DNA from: a phage
Sequence record: PZ534514.1
Length of the DNA stretch: 51,676 nt
Strand: one strand, 5' to 3'
The translations under genes and the position numbers were made by a program. Every line of letters begins with the position of its first letter. Position 1 is the first letter of the stretch. Below the pieces are notes generated by a model that ran no database searches, was not told where the DNA came from, and worked only from the letters and a program-made list of their open reading frames with translations. Below, piece after piece: positions 17,328 to 42,327 of this stretch.

Positions 17328-17371
17328 GATAGCACTTTTTGTTAAAAGAATTGATTATGAATCGTGTATCA
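17328..17371 (+). promoter_or_regulatory. Promoter-like motif, antisense to the tail operon
   Basis: gatagcactttttgttaaaag, 22 bp, tatcat on the + strand, directly upstream of the hairpin at 17394-17410. Confidence 0.3.
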
Positions 17372-17385
17372 TGATTGTACAGTAA

Positions 17386-17412
17386 CAAAAAAAGGGGCGC
17401 AACGCCCCTTGT
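17386..17412 (-). terminator. Terminator after major tail gene
   Basis: Hairpin ggggcg-ttg-cgcccc followed by T7 on the minus strand. Confidence 0.7.
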
Positions 17413-17414
17413 TA

Positions 17415-18077
17415 TTACTCTACTTGAGAAGGTAGAAAGGTGAATCGACCTTTCAGTGATACAGAAAGGGAAACAGTTTCCATTTCGTTAACTGTGGTCT
17501 GCGGGATTTCGTTAAACGAAAGTACACCAGCCCAGCAACGCATCTCTTTTGCTTTTGGTACATACATGCGAAGAGCGGTTACTTCGCCTGATTCATCTGC
17601 TGCACGAAGTAACGGATAGATCGCATTATCGTATTCGTGCGCAAAAGTGTAGGTAAGAGAAACGGCGCTCTTATAGGTAGGTAACTGCTGTTCCTGATCG
17701 TCTGCCAAACACTGATAGGTGTAGTATTGCTGTTCTCCGCCGTCCTGCGACAAATCCTGAACGCAAGGGATCTCAGTCCATGCATCAATTTTGGCAAAAG
17801 ATGCAGTGCCGCCAGACGGGAAAACGTTCTGATCAGTAGTATCTACGCCTTCAAGAGTTACGCTTGTTTCTTCACCGTTAGTCTTTACACGCATAACGCG
17901 ATCAATCAACTTACCCCAAGAAGACGCAGTGATGATAACATAATCACCTTTCTTGTACGCAGTGCCGCCAGATGCAACGGTGAATACAGGATCTTTAGCG
18001 TTTGACACTGCCGTTGCCTCAATAGCGCTTCCGCGATTGCTCTCAACGAAAATTTGCGATCCATTTGGTAAATGCAT
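17415..18077 (-). CDS. Major tail protein
   Basis: 220 aa with strong RBS aaaggag, followed by a strong terminator, immediately upstream of G/G-T. Confidence 0.75.
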   Translation of the reverse strand: MHLPNGSQIFVESNRGSAIEATAVSNAKDPVFTVASGGTAYKKGDYVIITASSWGKLIDRVMRVKTNGEETSVTLEGVDTTDQNVFPSGGTASFAKIDAWTEIPCVQDLSQDGGEQQYYTYQCLADDQEQQLPTYKSAVSLTYTFAHEYDNAIYPLLRAADESGEVTALRMYVPKAKEMRCWAGVLSFNEIPQTTVNEMETVSLSVSLKGRFTFLPSQVE

Positions 18078-21042: not shown

Positions 21043-21125
21043 TTTCTTCCTCCATATATAAAGGCTGTTAGTATGTAACGCCACAATGATAGCATTTTTT
21101 GTTAAACGTGCAACATAATTTTGTG

Positions 21126-21560
21126 TTATGCGCTAATGCTTACCCCGACAATATATGAATCATGATCAACCTTTACATGTTCGCCAGTAAAGAACCAACC
21201 GCTCAGCAAGTCGCCTTCACTGTATGCCGCATCTCCATCTTGCGTTACAAATACTTTATCTCCATATTCTGGCGCTTCGCTCTCAGAAGTTAAGCACCAA
21301 ATACTACCTCGACTAGCCACATTAACTGGATCACCCTCCTCATATATGCACGAGTCCGGCGGTCTTACTGCCACGCCAATAACGAGATCCCCATTAACAC
21401 TTGCCATTTTGTATCCATTTGTTATATGTGATAGTCGCACAATCTTACCTGGCGCAATAAATTCATCTCCGCACACGAAAGATCCGTTAATCACCATTAT
21501 TGAAGAATCGACCATGCACCCTGGCGACTCAGCGCCAACAATGACTGAATAATCACTCAT
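21126..21560 (-). CDS. Head accessory / decoration-like protein (paralogue of 21606-22118)
   Basis: 144 aa; shares a G(S/R)(I/V)W(C/M)L...(E/S)AP(E/A)(Y/F)G block with the upstream gene. Confidence 0.55.
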   Translation of the reverse strand: MSDYSVIVGAESPGCMVDSSIMVINGSFVCGDEFIAPGKIVRLSHITNGYKMASVNGDLVIGVAVRPPDSCIYEEGDPVNVASRGSIWCLTSESEAPEYGDKVFVTQDGDAAYSEGDLLSGWFFTGEHVKVDHDSYIVGVSISA

Positions 21561-29337: not shown

Positions 29338-29546
29338 TCTTCTACTACCTCGCATTCGTCATGATTTACGCCGATGTTATCACCGATTCGAATTTCTTCT
29401 GTGTTGCGGATTGCCAACACGCAGTAAGAACCATCGCGAAAGAATCCGTCAACCTCTACAATGTCACCAACTTTGAACCCGCATTGCTCAAGGGTAATGC
29501 TTCCGTCGTTGCGGTCAATGTCAACCCTGGTGATTCGAATTTTCAT
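29334..29546 (-). CDS. Hypothetical protein
   Basis: 70-aa ORF preceded by the conserved leader and RBS gaggaaa. Confidence 0.55.
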   Translation of the reverse strand: MKIRITRVDIDRNDGSITLEQCGFKVGDIVEVDGFFRDGSYCVLAIRNTEEIRIGDNIGVNHDECEVVEE

Positions 29547-29578
29547 TTTGATTTCCTCTGTTTCGCTTCAATGAGGAC

Positions 29579-29624
29579 ACTTTAACAAATGCCCTCGCGG
29601 AAGTTTTAACAAAAAGTGCTATTA
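29579..29624 (-). promoter_or_regulatory. Promoter-like element, conserved motif family
   Basis: Minus strand TAATAGCACTTTTTGTTAAAAC, 22 bp, TAAAGT, then leader and ATG at 29546. Confidence 0.5.
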
Positions 29625-30502: not shown

Positions 30503-30893
30503 TTCGCGCAATCCCTTTGTACATGCAGTAAAAATCACTGCCAGGCTTTTTGAACTTGATCGCATTTCGAGCAAGTCGGCGCATCCGTCGCGCATCGTAT
30601 CGCGCTCTCTGAAATGGTATTTTCATTGCCTTAACATGGCAGCCGCGATGATCGCTGATTCGCTTAAGCTCAATCAAAACGCCTTGAGTTGCCACTACGC
30701 AATAATGATCAAATCCCAAACGGCGAGTTATGATATAGCCATTCTTGATGCGTGGTCGGTTAAACTCTTTGGTCGATCCGATATAGCGATCTGAAGCCGT
30801 TACAATCTCGCCTTTACGAATACCGCATATCTCACCACATACCCAGGTCACAACAAATTTTGTGCCTACGCGGATTTTGTGAAGATCTAACAT
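30489..30893 (-). CDS. Cys/His-rich hypothetical protein (possible zinc-binding)
   Basis: ATG at 30893 with RBS gagaggg; residues CGEIC, DHYC, HRGCH; basic C-terminus. Confidence 0.55.
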   Translation of the reverse strand: MLDLHKIRVGTKFVVTWVCGEICGIRKGEIVTASDRYIGSTKEFNRPRIKNGYIITRRLGFDHYCVVATQGVLIELKRISDHRGCHVKAMKIPFQRARYDARRMRRLARNAIKFKKPGSDFYCMYKGIARNAGK

Positions 30894-30923
30894 GTTCAAG
30901 CCCTCTCGTTGATTGGTGTTTGC

Positions 30924-30969
30924 ATTATAGCGAGGCATTGCGCCCCGCTTTTAGCAATTCGTGCTATTT
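30924..30969 (-). promoter_or_regulatory. Promoter-like element, conserved motif family
   Basis: Minus strand AAATAGCACGAATTGCTAAAAG, 22 bp, TATAAT. Confidence 0.55.
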
Positions 30970-33195: not shown

Positions 33196-33412
33196 CCTTC
33201 ACCTCCTCAAATTCAGCAATCACCATAGCGTACGCCATAACCTTAGTGCCTTCGCCACCGTTCAGGAACATGCGATGCCCCTTACTATTGCTCACGTAAA
33301 AAGATCCGGTTGATGATTTCAGTTTTTGCGCCGTATAGATTTCGCCAGGCTTGAACATTCCAGCACAACCATAATTAACGGAAACGCATTTCATCTTCTT
33401 GCTAATGTACAT
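33182..33412 (-). CDS. Hypothetical protein
   Basis: ATG at 33412 with RBS aaggag; 76 aa. Confidence 0.55.
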   Translation of the reverse strand: MYISKKMKCVSVNYGCAGMFKPGEIYTAQKLKSSTGSFYVSNSKGHRMFLNGGEGTKVMAYAMVIAEFEEVKDGDK

Positions 33413-33442
33413 CGTTTTATCTCCTTCGTTGAAAGTGAGGCC

Positions 33443-33486
33443 ATTATACCTGGCCCCACATTTGAGTTTTAACAATTCGTGCTATT
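33443..33486 (-). promoter_or_regulatory. Promoter-like element, conserved motif family
   Basis: Minus strand AAATAGCACGAATTGTTAAAAC, 21-22 bp, TATAAT. Confidence 0.55.
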
Positions 33487-34367
33487 TACACTTTGACTTT
33501 CCACTTAACCATAGTTCCGCGCTTGATGCTGATCTCTCCTGCAACAGTCCGGTTTTTCGCACTGCCATAATGAAGCAGAAGAATAACAACGTCATCATGA
33601 ATCTCGATCGTCTTTGGCTTTGCCGTTAATTCATACCATGCGCCATCATCAAGCTGGACTCCTTTTAGCGTGGCTGCAACTGGCATATCTTCAATAGCGC
33701 TCTGACTTACGAGATCTTGCGCAACAAGACCGGACGCCTTGATTGTTTGACTGTGAATCTGCTCGCCAATACGTCGCGCAGCGTTGTCTATTGCCTGCGC
33801 AAAATATGATTTACCTCCGCCAATTGGCGCATCTCCAAACAAGTGTTTTGTAATGTCTTCCACGTAGTACACCTTATCTTCTTCATTGTGCGGATTGAAT
33901 TTGTTATGAGCGTTGACAAAGAAATCAACCTTAAGCTCTGATTTCTGACCGTCGCTATAGACGCCGTTTTCTGGTGACGTATAGCGAATCGTTGAGTTAC
34001 CAACCGTGCGGAACACGATCGGATACTTGATGTTATCCACGCTTAAGCACCACAGCTTTTTGTAGTCGCAGGTTTTCATATTGACCATCGGAATTTCTGC
34101 GCGTTCCGGCGAGCGCACTGGTAACACCTGGCCTTTATATGGCTTGTAGTGCAAGCATGTGTAGCCTGGCATTGCGTAACTGTAGTCTCTGAGTGAGTTG
34201 TAGTGTTTATTGTGCGCTTCAATGAAGTGTTCAATCTCCATTGTTGAAGCGTTTGGACTTCCGTATTCGTTAAACTTAGTGCATGTCTTCTCGTCGGAAA
34301 ACATGAAGTGACCAACGCCGCGAGATTCGAAGGTGATCGGGAATTTAATGTTAGCAAGTTTTAACAT
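33486..34367 (-). CDS. Hypothetical protein with internal tandem duplication (293 aa)
   Basis: Two repeats: IKFPITFESRG...FIEAHNKHYNSL and IKYPIVFRTVG...FVNAHNKFNPH; RBS aggag. Confidence 0.65.
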   Translation of the reverse strand: MLKLANIKFPITFESRGVGHFMFSDEKTCTKFNEYGSPNASTMEIEHFIEAHNKHYNSLRDYSYAMPGYTCLHYKPYKGQVLPVRSPERAEIPMVNMKTCDYKKLWCLSVDNIKYPIVFRTVGNSTIRYTSPENGVYSDGQKSELKVDFFVNAHNKFNPHNEEDKVYYVEDITKHLFGDAPIGGGKSYFAQAIDNAARRIGEQIHSQTIKASGLVAQDLVSQSAIEDMPVAATLKGVQLDDGAWYELTAKPKTIEIHDDVVILLLHYGSAKNRTVAGEISIKRGTMVKWKVKV

Positions 34368-34421
34368 AGTGCTTTCTCCTGATTGGTTTAACTGGGCGAC
34401 GCCGTGCCGCCCTATGTGTGT

Positions 34422-34468
34422 ATTATGCCTAGTTATCGTTTTTGAGTTTTAACAAAAAGTGCTATTTA
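34422..34468 (-). promoter_or_regulatory. Promoter-like element, conserved motif family
   Basis: Minus strand AAATAGCACTTTTTGTTAAAAC, 22 bp, CATAAT, then hairpin gggcggcacggcgtcgccc. Confidence 0.55.
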
Positions 34469-34666: not shown

Positions 34667-34852
34667 TTAAAAGAAAGCTACATAGTTTGCAATGCCTTTG
34701 GCGTCGTCGTTTGGCATTGCTTTTACAGCCAGGTCATAACCCGCATCTACCTTCTGCTTTGCTGTTTCTTCGTTGTAGCCCCAGATAACCAGGATTTTAA
34801 CTACGTTTTCTTTGTTCAGGACTTTAAGGTCTTTGGTGATGCGACGTGCCAT
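34667..34852 (-). CDS. Hypothetical protein
   Basis: 61-aa ORF preceded by the conserved leader. Confidence 0.5.
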   Translation of the reverse strand: MARRITKDLKVLNKENVVKILVIWGYNEETAKQKVDAGYDLAVKAMPNDDAKGIANYVAFF

Positions 34853-34884
34853 TTTGTTTTCCTCAATCTCGTTTCGATGAGGCT

Positions 34885-34930
34885 ATTATGCCAGGATTTG
34901 CACCTGGCGTTTTAACAAAAAGTGCTATTT
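34885..34930 (-). promoter_or_regulatory. Promoter-like element, conserved motif family
   Basis: Minus strand AAATAGCACTTTTTGTTAAAAC, hairpin gccagg/cctggc in spacer, CATAAT. Confidence 0.55.
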
Positions 34931-35655: not shown

Positions 35656-35829
35656 GGCGTCTACTCCTTTTGTTGCGTTTAAACTGGCTGCATTATTGCC
35701 TTGCCCTTCCTACATGTCAATGTATTTTTGTGTTTTGATAACAATTTTTGGCGCATGGCGTGTTTAAAGATAACAAAATGCTTCAGTTAAGCCATTGGTT
35801 TTTCTGTTAAAAATGACCTTGTTGACTTG

Positions 35830-36040
35830 GTTGACGGAGGATTGCTCCATACCCATATATATACATACAAAAATCACCACACATCACCATTGATTAAAAA
35901 ATATACAATCACACATACATATCACCGCAAACAATACCACTCCACCATATACCCATAGAACAATCTCAACAGTAAATAACAAATATAAATACATATATAA
36001 CTAACTTATTGATTTTATGGGCATATATATAAATTTTATT
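35830..36040. promoter_or_regulatory. AT-rich divergent control region with ATCACC repeats and IHF-consensus site; homologous to 6230-6440
   Basis: ATCACC repeats at 35871-35930; taacttattgatt at 36002-36014; repeated ttgacttggttgac at 35822-35835. Confidence 0.5.
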
Positions 36041-36308
36041 TTGTTCTTTTTGTTGATGAACGCCGATTCTGTTATCTAAAAGTGCGGAGGCTTGATTGTG
36101 ATAACGCAGGGAACAGAAATAACAGATGCGCTCTCCAGGATTGCCGGAAAGGACGCAAGAGGGCCGCGTTTCTCTATCCCCTCCACACAAAAAGTTAATC
36201 AACTGATTAAAATTGATCAAACTCAAAGTCTCACAATCCAGGTGATCGCGAATGATTTATTCCTGTTATTCCTGATTAATGGAATAGATGGAATAATGAC
36301 CAGCCAGC

Positions 36309-36354
36309 AAATAGCACTTTTTGTTAAAACTGAATTGTCCTGATCGGGTACATT
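36309..36354 (+). promoter_or_regulatory. Promoter-like element, conserved motif family
   Basis: aaatagcactttttgttaaaac, 22 bp, tacatt, leader acatcgaaacga, RBS aggag, ATG at 36393. Confidence 0.55.
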
Positions 36355-36392
36355 AGACACATCGAAACGAGATACCCATCAGGAGAAAGCAA

Positions 36393-36665
36393 ATGAACAT
36401 CAGCAAAACCACTTTCAATTTCGCCAAGCGTCATGGTCTGGACCTGACTGTTGAGAATTTCGGCGATGTTCTGCAACTCTGCATTTGGGAAGCGGACAAC
36501 GATTGCGAGTGGCTTTGCTCTTATCGTATCAACTACGATTGCTTAACCTGGCATGGCAATGTTTACCTGCCGCAAGAAGTGAAAGAGGAATTGCCAGCGA
36601 CCATCAACAACGAAGTGTTTTTGCGCAAAGTCCTGAAGTTTATTGCCGAGGAGATCAATAAATGA
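36393..36665 (+). CDS. Hypothetical early protein
   Basis: 90-aa ORF. Confidence 0.6.
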   Translation: MNISKTTFNFAKRHGLDLTVENFGDVLQLCIWEADNDCEWLCSYRINYDCLTWHGNVYLPQEVKEELPATINNEVFLRKVLKFIAEEINK

Positions 36666-36901
36666 TTAGTGAAGTGGATTTTGAACTTGCCGAGGCCCAG
36701 GTAAGGGCCAAAAAGATGGGATTGCGGATCTTGACGCAAACAGTCGAGTTCCCGTCGATGCCGTTCGCATCGTTTCATAAAGTGACGGTATTCATTAGCA
36801 AACGCGAGTGTAATGCGCTAATCCCTGTTGGTGATGATAAGCGCATGGCAAAATTCATTAACGAGTCCTGTGATGTTCTGGAGGCAGTTAAACATGGTTA
36901 A
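36662..36901 (+). CDS. Hypothetical protein
   Basis: 79-aa ORF with ATGA overlap. Confidence 0.55.
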   Translation: MISEVDFELAEAQVRAKKMGLRILTQTVEFPSMPFASFHKVTVFISKRECNALIPVGDDKRMAKFINESCDVLEAVKHG

Positions 36902-37169
36902 GCACGAAGCATTACGAAACGCGCTTGAACGCGCATATAAAAACGGATTCAGCGTACAGCGAGATCACCTTGCAGATCGTTACGGATGCGGGCGACACAT
37001 GACGCGCGTCATTGTTACCAGGCTTGATGATCCAGATCATTACGGTGAATATTTGATTGAAACGTCTAACTGTGATGAACAGGCAAGATGTATTGACTTT
37101 GAGGTTGATAACTATACCCCGCTTGATTTTGGGGTTGATGATTACGATCCGCTTGAAGATGATGAATGA
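36894..37169 (+). CDS. Hypothetical protein with strongly acidic C-terminus
   Basis: ATG at 36894 with RBS gagg; ends DFGVDDYDPLEDDE. Confidence 0.5.
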   Translation: MVKHEALRNALERAYKNGFSVQRDHLADRYGCGRHMTRVIVTRLDDPDHYGEYLIETSNCDEQARCIDFEVDNYTPLDFGVDDYDPLEDDE

Positions 37170-37181
37170 GGAGAAATAAAG

Positions 37182-37448
37182 ATGGCGCGAATCAATGCAC
37201 CTATTCCAGTTAAGCGCAAAGCACGTTTGCTCAATAACGGGTGTTACGCCATGCGGCCTGCATTTAAGGATCGCACATTTCCGGTTATCGTTAACGTGTC
37301 TCACGTAAGCCGTAGCGGTGATCTGGTATTTGTTAAAGGTGAGGATCTGTCGGCGCTTGGATTCTATGGCGGTATTTACGGTGAGGCGCTTGGATTCTGG
37401 ATTAAAGATCCGTTAACTGGCGAGCGCGAAATCGAACTCCTGGACTAA
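37182..37448 (+). CDS. Hypothetical protein
   Basis: 88-aa ORF, RBS gaggag. Confidence 0.6.
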   Translation: MARINAPIPVKRKARLLNNGCYAMRPAFKDRTFPVIVNVSHVSRSGDLVFVKGEDLSALGFYGGIYGEALGFWIKDPLTGEREIELLD

Positions 37449-37492
37449 ATAGCACTTTTTGTTAAAACTCAATCCTCGCAATCCGATATATT
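37447..37492 (+). promoter_or_regulatory. Promoter-like element, conserved motif family
   Basis: aaatagcactttttgttaaaac, 22 bp, tatatt; palindrome cctcgca/tgcgagg spans the -10; leader catcgacaacgaa. Confidence 0.55.
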
Positions 37493-37525
37493 ACACACAT
37501 CGACAACGAATGCGAGGATTTGAAA

Positions 37526-37678
37526 ATGGTTACTCTGATTACCTGGGAGCACGAAAACAGCCAGCCGGAAGTGCGCGAATTTGAAACTGTAGCGGCCTGC
37601 TACAACCTTGCGAAAAATGGCGGATTCTATAAGGCGCAAATTGTTAACGAATTTGGAGTTGTTGACTATGAGTTCTAA
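37526..37678 (+). CDS. Small hypothetical protein (50 aa)
   Basis: ATG at 37526 after RBS gagga; overlaps the next start by 11 nt; under the ORF-track size cutoff. Confidence 0.45.
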   Translation: MVTLITWEHENSQPEVREFETVAACYNLAKNGGFYKAQIVNEFGVVDYEF

Positions 37679-37949
37679 GTTTTGCAGCTATACCGATACT
37701 GTGGATTTTGATGGGATACAATTGCCCCTCCCGAACAACTACAGGTACATAACTCGTGACCGTTTCGGCTTTATCCAGGGGTGGCGGAACAAACCAACAC
37801 ACACTGAGTTCGGTATGTCTGGAGGAGAAGAGTTGCCGATCACTTTTGGGCATCAAAGCGGTGAAAATCTTCCGGTTGTTGCGCGTAAGTATCGCAGACG
37901 CAAGATCGCAAGAGCACTTATCTCTTTAACTGGATCTGTTGTTGAATAG
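37668..37949 (+). CDS. Hypothetical protein
   Basis: ATG at 37668 with RBS ggag; ORF-track start at 37608 lacks an RBS. Confidence 0.5.
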   Translation: MSSKFCSYTDTVDFDGIQLPLPNNYRYITRDRFGFIQGWRNKPTHTEFGMSGGEELPITFGHQSGENLPVVARKYRRRKIARALISLTGSVVE

Positions 37950-37989
37950 CACTTTTTGTTAAAACCGATGCGCCTCTGATTGGTATATT
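37944..37989 (+). promoter_or_regulatory. Promoter-like element, conserved motif family
   Basis: gaatagcactttttgttaaaac, 22 bp, tatatt; palindrome gatgcgc/gcgcatc; leader catcgacaacgaa. Confidence 0.55.
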
Positions 37990-38020
37990 ATGCGCATCGA
38001 CAACGAACGAGGATTTAAAA

Positions 38021-38215
38021 ATGGAAACACAGGTTGATGTTAAAGTTGTACAGCGTGACACCACTCACGAGAAAGGAATCTTTAAGAAAGGCACTATCAT
38101 CACCATTGATCTTGAGGATATGGTTGCGTATCACTCCGGCCTGACATGGAACGTTGTTAAACATGGCAATGCTTTCAAACTGTGTGGATTCAATACTTTT
38201 ATGGAGGTTGTGTAA
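38021..38215 (+). CDS. Hypothetical protein
   Basis: 64-aa ORF, RBS gaggatt. Confidence 0.55.
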   Translation: METQVDVKVVQRDTTHEKGIFKKGTIITIDLEDMVAYHSGLTWNVVKHGNAFKLCGFNTFMEVV

Positions 38216-38496
38216 TGGCCTACAAAAACAGCGATTTTAAAAACTCAGCCGAAACAATCAAGGCGAAACTCATTAAACAACGCGCTTACAGATTCTGGCT
38301 TGATTATCATGACCTAAGAAAAGAGATGGATAATCTTATCAAGACTGGTAACGCGTTCTGTTCTAACAGGACGGTTTGGCGCAATATGAATGCGCAGTAC
38401 GGTTATGGAAAAATTCGTGTATTTGGTGAGGCTGTTGAGGCGTATGTATTTAGCGCAACAAAAGCTGTGAGTTTTAACGTTGTTGGCATTAATTAG
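38215..38496 (+). CDS. Hypothetical protein
   Basis: ATG at 38215 with RBS ggagg; 93 aa. Confidence 0.55.
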   Translation: MAYKNSDFKNSAETIKAKLIKQRAYRFWLDYHDLRKEMDNLIKTGNAFCSNRTVWRNMNAQYGYGKIRVFGEAVEAYVFSATKAVSFNVVGIN

Positions 38497-38594
38497 ATGA
38501 AGCTAATAATATTCCATAATGCCTGGATGGTAGCTGTTGCAAATGATCATTATGGCGGAGACGGCAGGCGAGCAAAGCGCCATAGCTATTTCAA

Positions 38595-38640
38595 CTGATA
38601 GCACGAATTGCTAAACAATATTTCTCAAACCTGGTATAGT
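38595..38640 (+). promoter_or_regulatory. Promoter-like element (motif variant)
   Basis: ctgatagcacgaattgctaaac, 22 bp, tatagt. Confidence 0.45.
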
Positions 38641-38670
38641 TACCACGCTAAATATAATGAGGATTTCATA

Positions 38671-38898
38671 ATGAAAGCTAAAGTCACTAACATCATGCAC
38701 ACTGTTGATGCACATCACCGCGTCGCAATTAAGATGGATAAATCTTGCGGAATCAACCAGTTAACAATCACGAGCGGTAAAGGTGTGTTTGTTGTTGGCT
38801 CGCATCCAGGTAGTAAAATCCGCAAATATACGCGCGAAGAATTGATTAAACTTCTTGAAGAGAACAGCATGTTCATTGAAAGCTGGAAGGCTATCTAA
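38671..38898 (+). CDS. Hypothetical protein
   Basis: ATG at 38671 with RBS gagga; 75 aa. Confidence 0.55.
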   Translation: MKAKVTNIMHTVDAHHRVAIKMDKSCGINQLTITSGKGVFVVGSHPGSKIRKYTREELIKLLEENSMFIESWKAI

Positions 38899-38905
38899 TT
38901 AATAA

Positions 38906-38929
38906 ACGGGAGGTTTCGCCTCCCTTTAA
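38906..38929 (+). terminator. Rho-independent terminator
   Basis: Hairpin gggagg-tttcg-cctccc followed by ttt. Confidence 0.55.
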
Positions 38930-38944
38930 ATAAAGGTGATAATA

Positions 38945-39058
38945 ATGATGAAATTTCTTGATATTTTATTTGGTGTGATGATTGGCATTGTTGGTCTTTT
39001 AGTTGTCACTGCTGGTATTGCTATTATTCTGATTGTTATCAAGGAGTTTATGAAATGA
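38945..39058 (+). CDS. Small hydrophobic peptide (37 aa, single transmembrane helix)
   Basis: ATG at 38945 with RBS aaaggtga; stop overlaps the next start (ATGA). Confidence 0.4.
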   Translation: MMKFLDILFGVMIGIVGLLVVTAGIAIILIVIKEFMK

Positions 39059-39279
39059 GCCAGGACGGATTTTTTGAGCGACTGCAAAAAGCGGAAGATG
39101 CTGGGCTGAATAAAGAGGCCGCTCTTGAAGTTGCATATAAGATCAGAACGCTTGATGATGCGCTTGGTGAAATGGATATGGATCATGAATGCGGCGCTGC
39201 ATTTGCAGATCCAACTATGATTGTTAATGATTGTGGTTGCAATTTTGATCCGAACTGTCCTAGATGCTTTCCGTTTTGA
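39055..39279 (+). CDS. Hypothetical protein, Cys-rich C-terminus
   Basis: 74 aa; HECG...CGCNFDPNCPRC. Confidence 0.55.
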   Translation: MSQDGFFERLQKAEDAGLNKEAALEVAYKIRTLDDALGEMDMDHECGAAFADPTMIVNDCGCNFDPNCPRCFPF

Positions 39280-39288
39280 GGTGATGAA

Positions 39289-39999
39289 ATGTATAAAGGT
39301 TTAATATTCTCTTTGTTTGATGGATCTGGTAAGGCCGTTAAAGATTGGGCTGATGCTGGATATAAATGCATTTGCTTTAATGCTGACGGTGGCGATCACG
39401 GTGATTACCAGTCAGTGCGCATAATCCATGACAATATCTTTTACGTTAACGTGTGGATTGATGATCTATTCAAATATACCGCAAAACTTGAAAATTGGGG
39501 TAAGCCTGATTTTATTATGGCGTTCCCTCCATGCACTGACCTTGCAAATAGCGGATCTCGCCATTGGGCTAAAAAACGCATTGAGAATCCATCGTTCCAG
39601 GATGAAGCCGCCAACACTTGCAAAATAGCGGCGCAAATTGCTGATTATTTCGGTGTTCCGTACATGATAGAGAATCCTGTAGGCAAGCTGTCAACGCTAT
39701 GGCGCAAGCCTGATTATACGTTCCATCCGTGCGATTATGCTGGCTATCTGCCGGAAGATGATAAACATCCCGACTTTCCTGATATTATTCCGGCGCGGGA
39801 TCGGTACTTTAAGAAAACATGCCTTTGGACTGGAAACGGATTTGTTATTCCTCCGCGCGCAACAATCATTCCTAAAGATGGCGACAAGGATAATCCAGGT
39901 TGGGCCAAAACTGGCGGAAAATCATCTCGCACAAAGATGATCCGCTCCCTCACTCCGCGCGGTTTTGCTCGCGCAGTCTTTGAAGCAAACGCAAAATAG
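39289..39999 (+). CDS. Putative DNA cytosine-C5 methyltransferase-like protein (tentative)
   Basis: Motif I-like FSLFDGSG, PC-motif-like AFPPCTDLANSG, ENV-like MIENPVG; RBS gaggtga; only 236 aa. Confidence 0.5.
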   Translation: MYKGLIFSLFDGSGKAVKDWADAGYKCICFNADGGDHGDYQSVRIIHDNIFYVNVWIDDLFKYTAKLENWGKPDFIMAFPPCTDLANSGSRHWAKKRIENPSFQDEAANTCKIAAQIADYFGVPYMIENPVGKLSTLWRKPDYTFHPCDYAGYLPEDDKHPDFPDIIPARDRYFKKTCLWTGNGFVIPPRATIIPKDGDKDNPGWAKTGGKSSRTKMIRSLTPRGFARAVFEANAK

Positions 40000-40039
40000 C
40001 ACTTTTTGTTAAAAGCCAGGTGTAAAAGCCTGGCATAAT
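39993..40039 (+). promoter_or_regulatory. Promoter-like element, conserved motif family
   Basis: aaaatagcactttttgttaaaag, hairpin gccagg/cctggc in spacer, cataat. Confidence 0.55.
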
Positions 40040-40070
40040 CACTTCACCGAAACGAAAGGAGAAATAAACG

Positions 40071-40457
40071 ATGAAAGTTATCTGCAATAAAACCAACGTT
40101 TTGATGAACGGTCGTTATAAAGCTGTATACGAAAAAATCGCTGGTAGCGATGATGTGATCGAGTTGGAACAATTCCAGGTAAAGAGCATTACAAAGGGTA
40201 GTAAGTGGCAAAACGCTGTTGAGTCTGACTATCGTCATATCAAGACAAAAACAATTAAATGCACCTTTGTAGATCACAAGATCCCGTGTAAAAAGCATTT
40301 CAAAGAAGGGAAGCGTTACCAGATTGAGCAAGGTCGCGCGCTTGGCGCTGTTGCTGGTTATGTGTTTGATGAGGCTGGCGACCGCTGGACGCTATACCGC
40401 GAAGAGGTTGGATTTTCCGCTGGTGGCTGTCATTTGTTTGAGGCTATGTATAAGTGA
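40071..40457 (+). CDS. Hypothetical protein
   Basis: 128-aa ORF, RBS aaggag. Confidence 0.6.
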   Translation: MKVICNKTNVLMNGRYKAVYEKIAGSDDVIELEQFQVKSITKGSKWQNAVESDYRHIKTKTIKCTFVDHKIPCKKHFKEGKRYQIEQGRALGAVAGYVFDEAGDRWTLYREEVGFSAGGCHLFEAMYK

Positions 40458-40675
40458 TCAAGGCTGAATATCGCTATAAGGTGACTCATTCAGCAACAAA
40501 AACCTTCAATCCTGGCGATATAGTCAGGCCAATAAAGAAAACAATGGTTGGGTGGCTGATTGGATTATCATATCACAAATCACTTTACTTTGATTTTGTT
40601 GATTCCGTAACCGCGCATTGCTATAGCGCAAGGGAACCAGAAAAAATCTTAGTTAGCATAGAGCGGATCAAATAG
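40454..40675 (+). CDS. Hypothetical protein
   Basis: 73-aa ORF with ATGA overlap. Confidence 0.5.
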   Translation: MIKAEYRYKVTHSATKTFNPGDIVRPIKKTMVGWLIGLSYHKSLYFDFVDSVTAHCYSAREPEKILVSIERIK

Positions 40676-40715
40676 CATTTTTTGTTAAATGCGGGTAGCA
40701 TTGGTGCGGTATTAT
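40670..40715 (+). promoter_or_regulatory. Promoter-like element, conserved motif family
   Basis: aaatagcattttttgttaaat, 22 bp, tattat, with palindrome tgcggtattattgccgca over the -10. Confidence 0.5.
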
Positions 40716-40743
40716 TGCCGCATCAAAAAAGGAGTTATCATCA

Positions 40744-42327
40744 ATGAATTTTTCGTTTGAAACCAATAAACTAACACCAAAACAAATTATCGAATTAGCT
40801 GATGCACAAGGATTGTCTCCGGTGCGCGTGTCCATTCAGGCAAACGGATACCGTCAATCGTCCAGCTTTTGGGGTGAGGTTAATGATGTTAATAACGGAA
40901 ACGATCGCTACCCTGTAATTTCTCTTGGCAATGATGTTGATGTTGTTGGAAAGTTGGCGCGCAACATTGCTCGATCTGTTCAATTCCCTGAATCATCGGC
41001 ATATATGCATTTTATCGGATGTGTGTCTGCTGCAATGCTTGGACGCTTCACTGTTGAGTATCACGGAACGGATCAGCCGACCGCTCTTTATGTTGTTACA
41101 AGCCAGCCTCCTTCAACTGGTAAATCTGCCGTTAACAGCCTGGCACTTGCTCCAATGGTTGCGGAAGTGGAAAGAATTAACGATCAGCGAAAGAAGGAAA
41201 GAAAAAAGATTCAGGCAAAGTTGGCAGGTCTTACAAAAGAGATGAAAAGCGAGCGCTCCGGCGCTGATATGGAATCTCTGTACCAGGAGAAAGAAGATCT
41301 GGAAGAAAAACTGGAAAAGATGTGTGACATCGTTTTCCCTGTGTCCGACACAACGCCGGAAGGACTTGCAAGAATCAACAATCGCCAGGGTAACTTTGCT
41401 GTGATTTCAGACGAGGCAACGAGTATTAACAGCCTTTTAGGTCTGACATATGCCAATAGCGAACGTAAAACCAACAGCGAACTTGTGCTGAAAGCATGGG
41501 ATCATGGTCATGTTTCTATAGCTCGTGCAAACGCTGACAACAATATGAGTTTTAAAGCTCTTGGCTGTATGGCGGTAATTGCCCAGGATGAAACAATCAA
41601 TGCCATCATGGATGCAGGATCGCGCGGTATCGGTGTAAGTGAGCGTTATTTGCTTGTGCGTGAGGAATCATTTTTAGGTCGTCGAAAGTTTGTTGATGAT
41701 AACGGTGATTCGACTTATGAGCCTGTTGATGGAGAACTGAAAAGTCAATATTTTAAGCTGATCCATAACATCATGAGTGAATCAAACATCCAGCTTAAGA
41801 TCAGCAAATCAGCAATGCGAGTTCTTAACATGGCTCGTCAGGAGATGGAGCCGCACCTTGCTGATGGAGGAAAGTATTCGCATACAATGCTGCGCGGTGC
41901 GCTTGGAAAAATGGATAAGCAGGTGATCAGGATTGCTTCGGTTTTGCACACTATCCGCAATTGGTTTAATCCTGGCGGATACCCTCAAAAGTCGAAAGAG
42001 ATTGAGGTTGAAACCGTTCAGGAAGCATTGCTGATGTTTAGCGAGTTGAGCAAAACATACATTAGCGCCGCCAACGCTTCTGGCTACGCTGGTGATGATG
42101 CTGAAATGGGTAAACTAATCGAGATCATCACTCGACACGGCAAGGCTAATAAGGGAATCTTGAATGTTCGCGCCATATATGAGGCTGCACGAAAAGTTAA
42201 GCCGTTTGTTGGTCAGGCTGGCGTAATGAAGCGCATGGAAACGCAACTGCTTCCGATGCTTGAGGAAAGAAATTATATTTGTGTGATTAATGGCGTTGTT
42301 TTCGTAAATCCAACATTGCTGGGGTAA
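40744..42327 (+). CDS. P-loop NTPase-like early protein of unknown function (527 aa)
   Basis: RBS aaaggag; Walker A-like SQPPSTGKSAV; charged coiled-coil segment after it. Confidence 0.7.
   Translation: MNFSFETNKLTPKQIIELADAQGLSPVRVSIQANGYRQSSSFWGEVNDVNNGNDRYPVISLGNDVDVVGKLARNIARSVQFPESSAYMHFIGCVSAAMLGRFTVEYHGTDQPTALYVVTSQPPSTGKSAVNSLALAPMVAEVERINDQRKKERKKIQAKLAGLTKEMKSERSGADMESLYQEKEDLEEKLEKMCDIVFPVSDTTPEGLARINNRQGNFAVISDEATSINSLLGLTYANSERKTNSELVLKAWDHGHVSIARANADNNMSFKALGCMAVIAQDETINAIMDAGSRGIGVSERYLLVREESFLGRRKFVDDNGDSTYEPVDGELKSQYFKLIHNIMSESNIQLKISKSAMRVLNMARQEMEPHLADGGKYSHTMLRGALGKMDKQVIRIASVLHTIRNWFNPGGYPQKSKEIEVETVQEALLMFSELSKTYISAANASGYAGDDAEMGKLIEIITRHGKANKGILNVRAIYEAARKVKPFVGQAGVMKRMETQLLPMLEERNYICVINGVVFVNPTLLG

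Follow-up and report, generated by a model that had tools for sequence, protein, structure and literature searches.

Promoter-early stem-loop cassettes (PeSLs) have been described in the T4-like phages RB49 and phi1 (Arbiol et al. 2010, PMC2839356; Comeau et al. 2014, PMC4122927), and one PeSL stem-loop cut lacZ expression in the manner of a strong terminator (PMC2839356). Separately, a re-annotation of phage TLS reported a 21-nucleotide (nt) direct repeat, aaATAGCACnnnTTGnTAAAA, at 21 places about 76 nt before start codons; the repeat was also found in phages T1, Rtp and Rogue1, and its role was left open as a stoperator, an enhancer site or an UP element (PMC11447400). Here we analyze a recurrent cassette of 20-nt box, hairpin, −10 hexamer and leader in the 51,676-nt phage sequence PZ534514.1, the whole of which is called the window below. 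The window belongs to a T1-like phage, a group that is common in laboratory and therapy use and whose transcription signals are essentially unmapped.

The cassettes of the window share much of their anatomy with PeSLs. In both, an upstream stop codon lies in an AT-rich stretch and is followed by a promoter and then by a Shine-Dalgarno site and an ATG, and in both the stem-loop is GC rich, often a G run facing a C run with G-T pairs. In both, the place of the stem-loop varies, from between the upstream element and the −10, to over the −10, to just before the start, and many copies precede small genes of unassigned function. By contrast, PeSL promoters fit the sigma-70 consensus, whereas a 20-nt box replaces the −35 element here and places TTGyTA 22 bp from the −10, and the conserved leader, or initial transcribed sequence, found here is not described for PeSLs. 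Moreover, terminator activity and recombination minicircles have been demonstrated for PeSLs, and the hosts of PeSLs are T4-like, whereas those of the present cassettes are siphoviruses of another family. The box itself is the TLS repeat: it points the same way and likewise lies about 76 nt ahead of the start codon, and both the TTT and the GAA middle variants occur in the window. The TLS paper treated the repeat alone and did not mention a fixed −10, hairpins or a leader (PMC11447400). We conclude that the cassette is a variant of the promoter/stem-loop kind built on an already published repeat. It overturns no known principle, and it extends the promoter/stem-loop idea past the T4-like phages.

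The box sets a fixed frame for a predicted promoter

The window was assigned to the genus Hanrivervirus (Drexlerviridae), with phage herni about 94% identical, and region 36000-40300 is 90 to 94% identical to the Hanrivervirus phages herni, egaa, pSf-1 and G29-2. The + strand carries the genes between about 36.3 and 42.7 kb, the − strand those between about 4 and 35.7 kb. The 20-nt box, AATAGCACTTTTTGTTAAAA, was found 15 times in the window at three or fewer mismatches, against 0.05 copies expected, and the published looser consensus gave 17 copies. Each cassette, or module, runs in the order box (20 nt), spacer (18 to 19 nt), sigma-70-type −10 hexamer (TATAAT, CATAAT, TATATT and similar in the window), a C-rich discriminator of 6 nt, a C-A step whose A is the predicted start, leader, Shine-Dalgarno site and ATG. 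Start sites were inferred from the position of the −10 and are predicted throughout. Four modules in the rightward early genes illustrate the arrangement:

36310..36395, + strand, module 1: box 36310-36329; −10 TACATT 36349-36354; predicted start A 36361; ATG 36393; repeat arms 36335-36347 and 36375-36387 (13 nt, 85% complementary), the 3′ arm over the Shine-Dalgarno AGGAG; leader ATCGAAACGAG.
37448..37528, + strand, module 2: box 37448-37467, abutted by the TAA of the upstream gene; −10 TATATT 37487-37492; predicted start A 37499; ATG 37526; repeat arms 37471-37483 and 37508-37520 (13 nt, 92% complementary), the 3′ arm TGCGAGG being the Shine-Dalgarno site; leader ATCGACAACGAA.
37945..38023, + strand, module 3: box 37945-37964, its TAG being the stop codon of the upstream gene; −10 TATATT 37984-37989; predicted start A 37996; ATG 38021; repeat arms CGATGCGC 37966-37973 and GCGCATCG 37992-37999 (8 nt, perfect) on both sides of the −10; leader ATCGACAACGAA.
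39995..40073, + strand, module 4: box 39995-40014, its TAG being the stop codon of a cytosine methylase gene; −10 CATAAT 40034-40039; predicted start A 40046; ATG 40071; spacer-only hairpin GCCAGG/CCTGGC at 40015-40034 (−13.9 kcal/mol), its last base being the C of CATAAT; leader ACCGAAACGAAA.

To describe the family, viral contigs were scanned for exact matches to the box, which gave 120 loci; together with herni and G29-2 these yielded 445 unique sites and, after thinning, 159 non-redundant modules of T1-like phages. The modules were anchored on the box only, so that the −10 and leader columns were unbiased by any choice of −10 or leader. A −10 element emerged at +38 to +43 (T.62, A.86, T.76, A.62, A.56, T.86), with G at −14 in 80% of modules and a spacer that otherwise held about 0 bits per position. 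Downstream, C (.72) at −1 and A (.79) at +1 were followed by t-c-g-A-A-A-c-n-A-A, and the median 5′ untranslated region (5′UTR) was 26 nt from the predicted start. Read as canonical sigma-70 promoters the modules fail, as they have no −35 element. We conclude that the box belongs to a fixed frame that also comprises a −10 element, the predicted start, an initial transcribed sequence that is conserved and a hairpin conserved in structure only, which gives 17 concrete start and end predictions per genome.

The leader is in register with the predicted start site

The leader reads (A)TCGAAACGAA from the predicted start A and lies at a constant spacing from both box and −10, with C at −1 in 72 to 78% and A at +1 in 79 to 88% of modules; its bases are predicted to be unpaired. 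Within the window, AACGA preceded 8 of 14 module-linked starts and 2 of 68 other starts, in agreement with the original prediction, made from the same sequence, that a leader is common to these promoters. As a free-standing motif the leader fared less well: with 2 mismatches allowed, the exact 12-mer CATCGAMAACGA showed no enrichment over the window as a whole (15 copies against 9.4 expected). Thus, the leader signal is positional, being placed relative to the box and the −10.

The leader, which lies between the −10 and the ribosome binding site (RBS), had also been proposed to serve common post-transcriptional control. The information content of the leader over +1 to +12 was 7.1 bits when modules were anchored on the start site and 3.5 bits when they were anchored on the start codon. 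Registration to the start site therefore fits an initial transcribed or 5′-end element better than an RBS-proximal element. As a lead rather than a test, the start of the T7 A1 promoter also reads C/ATCGA. Some leaders are identical in pairs: module 2 shares its leader with module 3, and module 1 with the module at 34852..34929 on the − strand.

Each module encodes its own hairpin upstream of the predicted start

An inverted repeat particular to each promoter had been predicted to follow every box copy. All of the repeats named were present, and a scan of 36300-40100 that returned 82 inverted-repeat pairs placed the arms of modules 1 to 3 among the longest. When folded from the end of the box to the start codon, as they would be in transcripts that enter from the gene before them, modules 1 to 4 gave z scores of −3.6, −3.7, −1.9 and −4.05 against dinucleotide shuffles (−18.7, −17.4 and −14.6 kcal/mol for modules 1 to 3), and the mean fold z of 13 window modules was −2.8. 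Across the 159 modules, the segment from the box end to −1 folded at a mean of −8.0 kcal/mol compared with −3.9 for shuffles, and 44% of modules but 2% of shuffles reached −10 kcal/mol or lower. Chimeras that joined the spacer of one module to the −10 and discriminator of another folded at a mean of −5.5 kcal/mol, against −8.0 for real modules. A hairpin of at least 5 kcal/mol strength (−5 or lower) lay entirely upstream of +1 in 107 of the 159 modules.

Family hairpins have a median stem of 8 pairs and slide in position within −31 to −1. Their 5′ arms fall at −30 to −15, and their 3′ arms either at −18 to −12, within the spacer and often reaching as far as the C of CATAAT, or at −9 to −1, in which case the spacer pairs with the discriminator and the −10 lies in the loop. 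Most 3′ arms stop by −1 of the predicted start, and pairing fell from 0.68 at −1 to 0.40 at +1. Thus, the repeats do not form 5′UTR structure as had been supposed. At orthologous promoters the hairpin is often different and elsewhere, yet it is nearly always present. Because the hairpins differ in position and alignment columns do not match, the chimera test and a geometry test were used in place of column covariation; the commonest geometry, −24 to −20 paired with −5 to −1, occurred in 21 of 137 modules compared with 1.6 expected from column composition. Individual stems were also preserved by compensation: the stem GGGGTA/TACCCC of phage GuL6 has GGGATA/TATCCC as its counterpart in phage GAP161, and the stem of module 2 is retained in close orthologues through a U·G pair. 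The palindromes are therefore conserved in relatives, as predicted, but as structures. We conclude that the hairpins are real, selected and family-wide.

Chance alone, or copying along with the cassettes, could in principle account for the repeats and the likeness of the leaders, since inverted repeats of 6 to 7 nt are common in 60-nt windows, as the 82 pairs in 3.8 kb illustrate, and some leaders are identical in pairs. The spacers, however, are unrelated in sequence and yet fold, and the enrichment, chimera and compensatory-change results, together with the wobble asymmetry and the upstream-gene association given below, contradict an absence of function, which we regard as extremely improbable.

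The hairpin is selected on the sense strand and tracks the upstream gene

Interior mismatches in the best helices comprised 41 G·T and 2 A·C, compared with 30 and 11 in shuffled controls (Fisher p = 0.006), and the excess of interior G·T over all other mismatch types was stronger still (p = 1e-14). Moreover, the sense strand folded better than the antisense by 1.64 kcal/mol, against 0.25 in shuffles (p = 4e-11). The mismatch asymmetry indicates selection on the sense strand.

The same data bear on whether the repeats act in DNA, as a cruciform, a non-template-strand hairpin or a site for a dimeric protein that tunes the promoter. The repeats do lie inside promoters and many enclose the −10, the module at 49275..49352 carries a sequence-conserved palindrome over its −10 beside a regulator gene, and phage N4 early promoters function as DNA hairpins. 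However, tolerance of G·T but not A·C is unexpected of a cruciform or a duplex site, the repeat differs in sequence at every promoter and so offers no common protein site, its position slides between −31 and −1, and its strength varies with the gene that reads in from upstream. A DNA-level element is thus very unlikely as the general explanation. A terminator for the opposite strand, composed of the hairpin and TTTTAAC on the reverse strand, was also considered and rejected, as only spacer-only hairpins abut the box and wobble pairs favor the sense strand.

Hairpin strength depended on what lies upstream. An open reading frame (ORF) of at least 60 codons ended at the box in 98 of 147 modules, and these modules had a median fold of −13.0 kcal/mol compared with −4.8 kcal/mol for the 49 modules without such an ORF (p = 3e-6); 69 of the 98 ORFs stopped at the TAG of the box itself. 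Likewise, the window modules without a co-directional upstream gene (6507, 17328, 21088 and 49275..49352) mostly had weak structure. As fold strength is tied to an upstream ORF, the hairpin belongs functionally to the RNA that reads in from that ORF. Furthermore, RNA made at the promoter of the module lacks the hairpin, which precedes the predicted start. Folding of the predicted primary 5′UTRs of modules 1 to 4, which had been suggested as a test, indicated that they are unstructured (−0.3 to −1.9 kcal/mol, z > 0; −0.7 kcal/mol for module 1), in contrast to the read-in versions (z −1.9 to −4.05). The proposed promoter-specific structure can therefore act only in read-in RNA. We conclude that the feature was seen correctly in the original prediction and that the hairpins were assigned to the wrong transcript.

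A divergent AT-rich control region lies at 35690-36060, between the leftward and the rightward early genes, and no canonical sigma-70 match of the region is better than the one it contains (TTGACA-17-AATAAT, − strand, 35720-35692). The control region is a likely source of read-in transcription.

A composite cassette that may bound the upstream transcript

We favor the reading, at a probability of roughly 0.55, that each module is a composite promoter/stem-loop cassette whose hairpin acts on RNA from the upstream gene; its anatomy, its strand asymmetry and its tie to upstream genes were shown above, whereas its start site, its promoter activity and the effect of its hairpin on RNA, like all functional steps, are inferred. 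In such a cassette, the upstream gene ends within or against the 20-nt box, and 19 bp further a sigma-70-type −10 would direct initiation at the A located 7 nt after it, to give an unstructured A/C-rich leader of about 26 nt that includes the Shine-Dalgarno site. Only the spacer and discriminator are free in sequence, and each cassette encodes its own GC-rich hairpin there. Every read-in RNA would carry this hairpin directly after the stop codon of the upstream gene, and the hairpin may mark the boundary of the upstream transcript. It could do so as an attenuator or weak terminator, as for the one PeSL stem-loop of T4-like phages, and it may also, or instead, block 3′ exonucleases; the present results could fit either role and do not separate them. 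The leader, as initial transcribed sequence and mRNA 5′ end, may be conserved because it supports the choice of start site and promoter escape and leaves ribosomes an open landing site. A part of about 77 bp that combines promoter, insulator and leader may serve phage engineering.

Like intrinsic terminators, the cassettes place a GC-rich hairpin directly after a gene, and some were called by ARNold in G29-2 and KP15; the annotators of these two phages attached terminator labels to such hairpins independently, including the G29-2 orthologue of the module 4 hairpin. Unlike intrinsic terminators, 97 of 107 hairpins have no U tract and the −10 hexamer or ATCGAAAC comes next.

Several observations weigh against the favored reading. 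Only 10 of the 107 hairpins have 5 or more T among the 8 nt that follow the stem (mean, 2.2 T), and efficient intrinsic termination is therefore not expected; a terminator scan called none of the window modules. No strong hairpin precedes the predicted start in 52 of the 159 modules. There is no usable −35, with no hexamer at 16 to 18 bp and TTGyTA 22 bp from the −10, and a sigma-70 consensus scan called no module as a promoter except the degenerate one at 38596..38673, such that promoter activity may require a further factor. The sites were drawn from related phages, and thinning by sequence distance leaves them partly non-independent. Finally, the literature reachable for T1-like phages gave no measured transcription starts or 3′ ends, and on transcription signals it held only the TLS description and in silico annotations.

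If the hairpin and leader were instead cut by RNase III or RNase E to divide the transcript into units, as the original prediction suggested, an intercistronic structure next to an unpaired A-rich leader would be a fitting arrangement, and this account would overlap with the favored one if the upstream fragment retained the hairpin as its 3′ end after cleavage. RNase III substrates of the T7 type are long duplexes of about 20 bp, however, as opposed to the median of 8 pairs here, and RNase E prefers U-rich sequence, which the leader does not offer. In addition, a covariance-model search of module RNA against Rfam matched no family. We therefore regard processing sites as a rather improbable account.

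Masking of the ribosome binding site is predicted for two window modules and is not general

A hairpin that spans a promoter can also control translation. In the T4 genes e (lysozyme), soc and I-TevI, a hairpin across a late promoter masks the RBS only in transcripts started upstream. Modules 1 and 2 resemble these genes, as their 5′ arms precede the predicted start and their 3′ arms cover the Shine-Dalgarno site. For module 1, the probability that the Shine-Dalgarno site is unpaired fell from 0.44 in the primary transcript to 0.17 in the read-through transcript, and for module 2 it fell from 0.58 to 0.10. Within the favored cassette, such masking of read-through copies while promoter-initiated copies stay open would be a side effect of where the 3′ arm happens to lie.

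Alternatively, gating could be the purpose of the hairpin, with the segment before the start pairing with the Shine-Dalgarno site so that only promoter-initiated RNA is translated. Beyond modules 1 and 2, CCTCA and similar C-rich discriminators are able to base-pair with TGAGG in the module at 34852..34929 and in several orthologues, and 28 of 144 modules lost more than 0.3 in accessibility in read-through RNA. Family-wide the effect was nevertheless small (0.58 versus 0.46), most 3′ arms end at or before −1, short of the Shine-Dalgarno site, and the 5′ arm has been lost in one orthologue of module 1 (locus L058). Moreover, shuffling the spacer left accessibility as it was (0.458 versus 0.460; p = 0.57), and adding the spacer to the RNA did not change it. 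Gating is thus unlikely to explain the hairpins, and as a family-wide property it was rejected, in that spacer shuffling or addition was without effect; masking by the repeat stands for modules 1 and 2, two of the three modules within 36309-38030, and does not extend to the family. Masking is not general in the cassettes, and there is no sign of a pair of early and late promoters, both unlike the T4 genes. The notion that the spacer arm insulates the Shine-Dalgarno site from masking by the discriminator was likewise discarded, as accessibility was the same after spacer shuffling or addition.

Cassettes in T4-like phages and possible exchange at conserved ends

The complete cassette (box, own hairpin, −10 and CATCGAAACGAAAC leader) was also found in T4-like myoviruses, in Slopekvirus and Pseudotevenvirus:

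L123 1561-1655 and 1916-1992, Klebsiella phage KP15 (Slopekvirus): two cassettes within 400 nt.
L124 121-200, Buttiauxella phage GuL6 (T4-like): one cassette.
L125 121-205, Cronobacter phage GAP161 (Pseudotevenvirus): one cassette.

The KP15 cassettes have been annotated, in silico only, as "putative middle promoter" and "terminator," and the spacer of one KP15 copy contains a true hairpin with TTTTTGG after it. The GuL6 and GAP161 stems differ by the compensatory G-C to A-T change given above. A 69-nt module query was covered to at least 80% in 1005 phage records.

Breakpoints of homology between the window and its relatives fell in modules in 7.5% of cases, although modules cover 2.8% of the window (2.7-fold; p = 0.003). 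Among orthologues, single cases of a swapped spacer or a swapped upstream gene were found (L058 of module 1; L060 of the module at 33412..33486). The box and leader, both conserved, exactly delimit such exchanges in some relatives, where either the segment of spacer and −10 or the entire gene upstream has been replaced. The exact replacements and the mild breakpoint enrichment hint that the cassettes are recombination sites, as proposed for PeSLs. Near-identical cassettes in two families point to a shared, possibly mobile, regulatory unit. More tentatively, and with the balance tilted against it, box, own hairpin, −10 and CATCGAAACGA leader may form a single portable expression unit, conserved in sequence, in T1-like siphoviruses and at least two T4-like genera (Slopekvirus and Pseudotevenvirus), one that recombines at its conserved ends and so moves genes inside a phage family and from one family to another, and whose promoter is read through the 20-nt box by a further factor and not through a −35.

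Other modules of the window

The remaining box copies were as follows:

40671..40746, + strand: box 40671-40690; hairpin 40706-40721 (−9.9 kcal/mol) around −10 TATTAT 40710-40715; predicted start 40722; ATG 40744 of a helicase gene.
38596..38673, + strand: degenerate module; box variant GATAGCACGAATTGCTAAAC; −10 TATAGT 38635-38640; ATG 38671; weak hairpin; leader off consensus.
34852..34929, − strand: box 34910-34929; spacer hairpin 34890-34908 (−11.3 kcal/mol); −10 CATAAT 34885-34890; predicted start 34878; leader ATCGAAACGAG; start codon at 34852; discriminator CCTCA able to pair with Shine-Dalgarno TGAGG.
34367..34466, − strand: no hairpin before the predicted start; GGGCG.../...CGCCC hairpin within a longer, 48-nt leader.
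33412..33486, − strand: box variant with GAA middle; GGGGCC/GGCCTC (−10.9 kcal/mol) around −10 TATAAT 33443-33448.
30893..30968, − strand: spacer hairpin GCGGGGC/GCCTCGC (one G·U; −13.1 kcal/mol) up to −10 TATAAT 30924-30929.
29546..29623, − strand: GAGGGCA/TGTCCTC (one G·U; −13.0 kcal/mol) around −10 TAAAGT 29579-29584; leader ATTGAAGCGAAA.
45731..45808, − strand: spacer hairpin GCCCGAC/GTCGGGC (−13.6 kcal/mol), its stem kept in the G29-2 orthologue by a G·U pair; −10 CATAAT 45764-45769; leader ATCAAAACGAAC.
46749..46828, − strand: spacer hairpin GGCGC/GCGCC (−11.4 kcal/mol); −10 CATAAT 46784-46789; precedes an adenine methylase gene.
49275..49352, − strand: AT-rich palindrome GTGTATTATACAC only, over the −10 (49305-49317; −3.5 kcal/mol); no co-directional upstream gene; precedes a helicase gene.
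6507..6584, + strand: before a lipoprotein-like gene (Cor-type in herni); no hairpin (−2.3 kcal/mol).
17328..17416, + strand: antisense to tail genes; predicted to fire into a bidirectional terminator at 17394-17408.
21088..21136, + strand: box copy antisense to capsid genes; poor −10.

The module at 17328..17416 has a −10 of TATCAT, and the terminator, GGGGCGcaaCGCCCC, lies about 15 nt past the predicted start, such that the predicted RNA is about 40 nt; the arrangement was retained in 11 of 11 orthologous loci found, phage T1 included. The palindrome GTGTATTATACAC differs from the repeats of the other modules in that its core, TGTATTATACA, is sequence-conserved in distant orthologues, and it adjoins a divergent "transcriptional regulator" gene (49365-49838). 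Because of the conserved core and the adjoining regulator gene, the palindrome at 49305-49317 is a candidate operator.

GATC occurs in the spacer of 30 of the 159 modules, 12 of them at the same place (−19 to −16); in the window, spacer GATC sites lie at 36343-36346 and 6537-6540. The phage encodes both an adenine and a cytosine methylase. Some module promoters are possibly sensitive to Dam methylation.

Among the records compared, 20 "Campylobacter phage" entries, such as phage A131 (47 kb), match the present E. coli T1-like sequence at the nucleotide level and look like mis-assigned or contaminant T1-like genomes. Lastly, a canonical bidirectional terminator, GGGAGGtttcgCCTCCC between A and T runs, lies at 38899-38933 after a gene that ends at 38898, and ordinary terminators are therefore also used in the early region.

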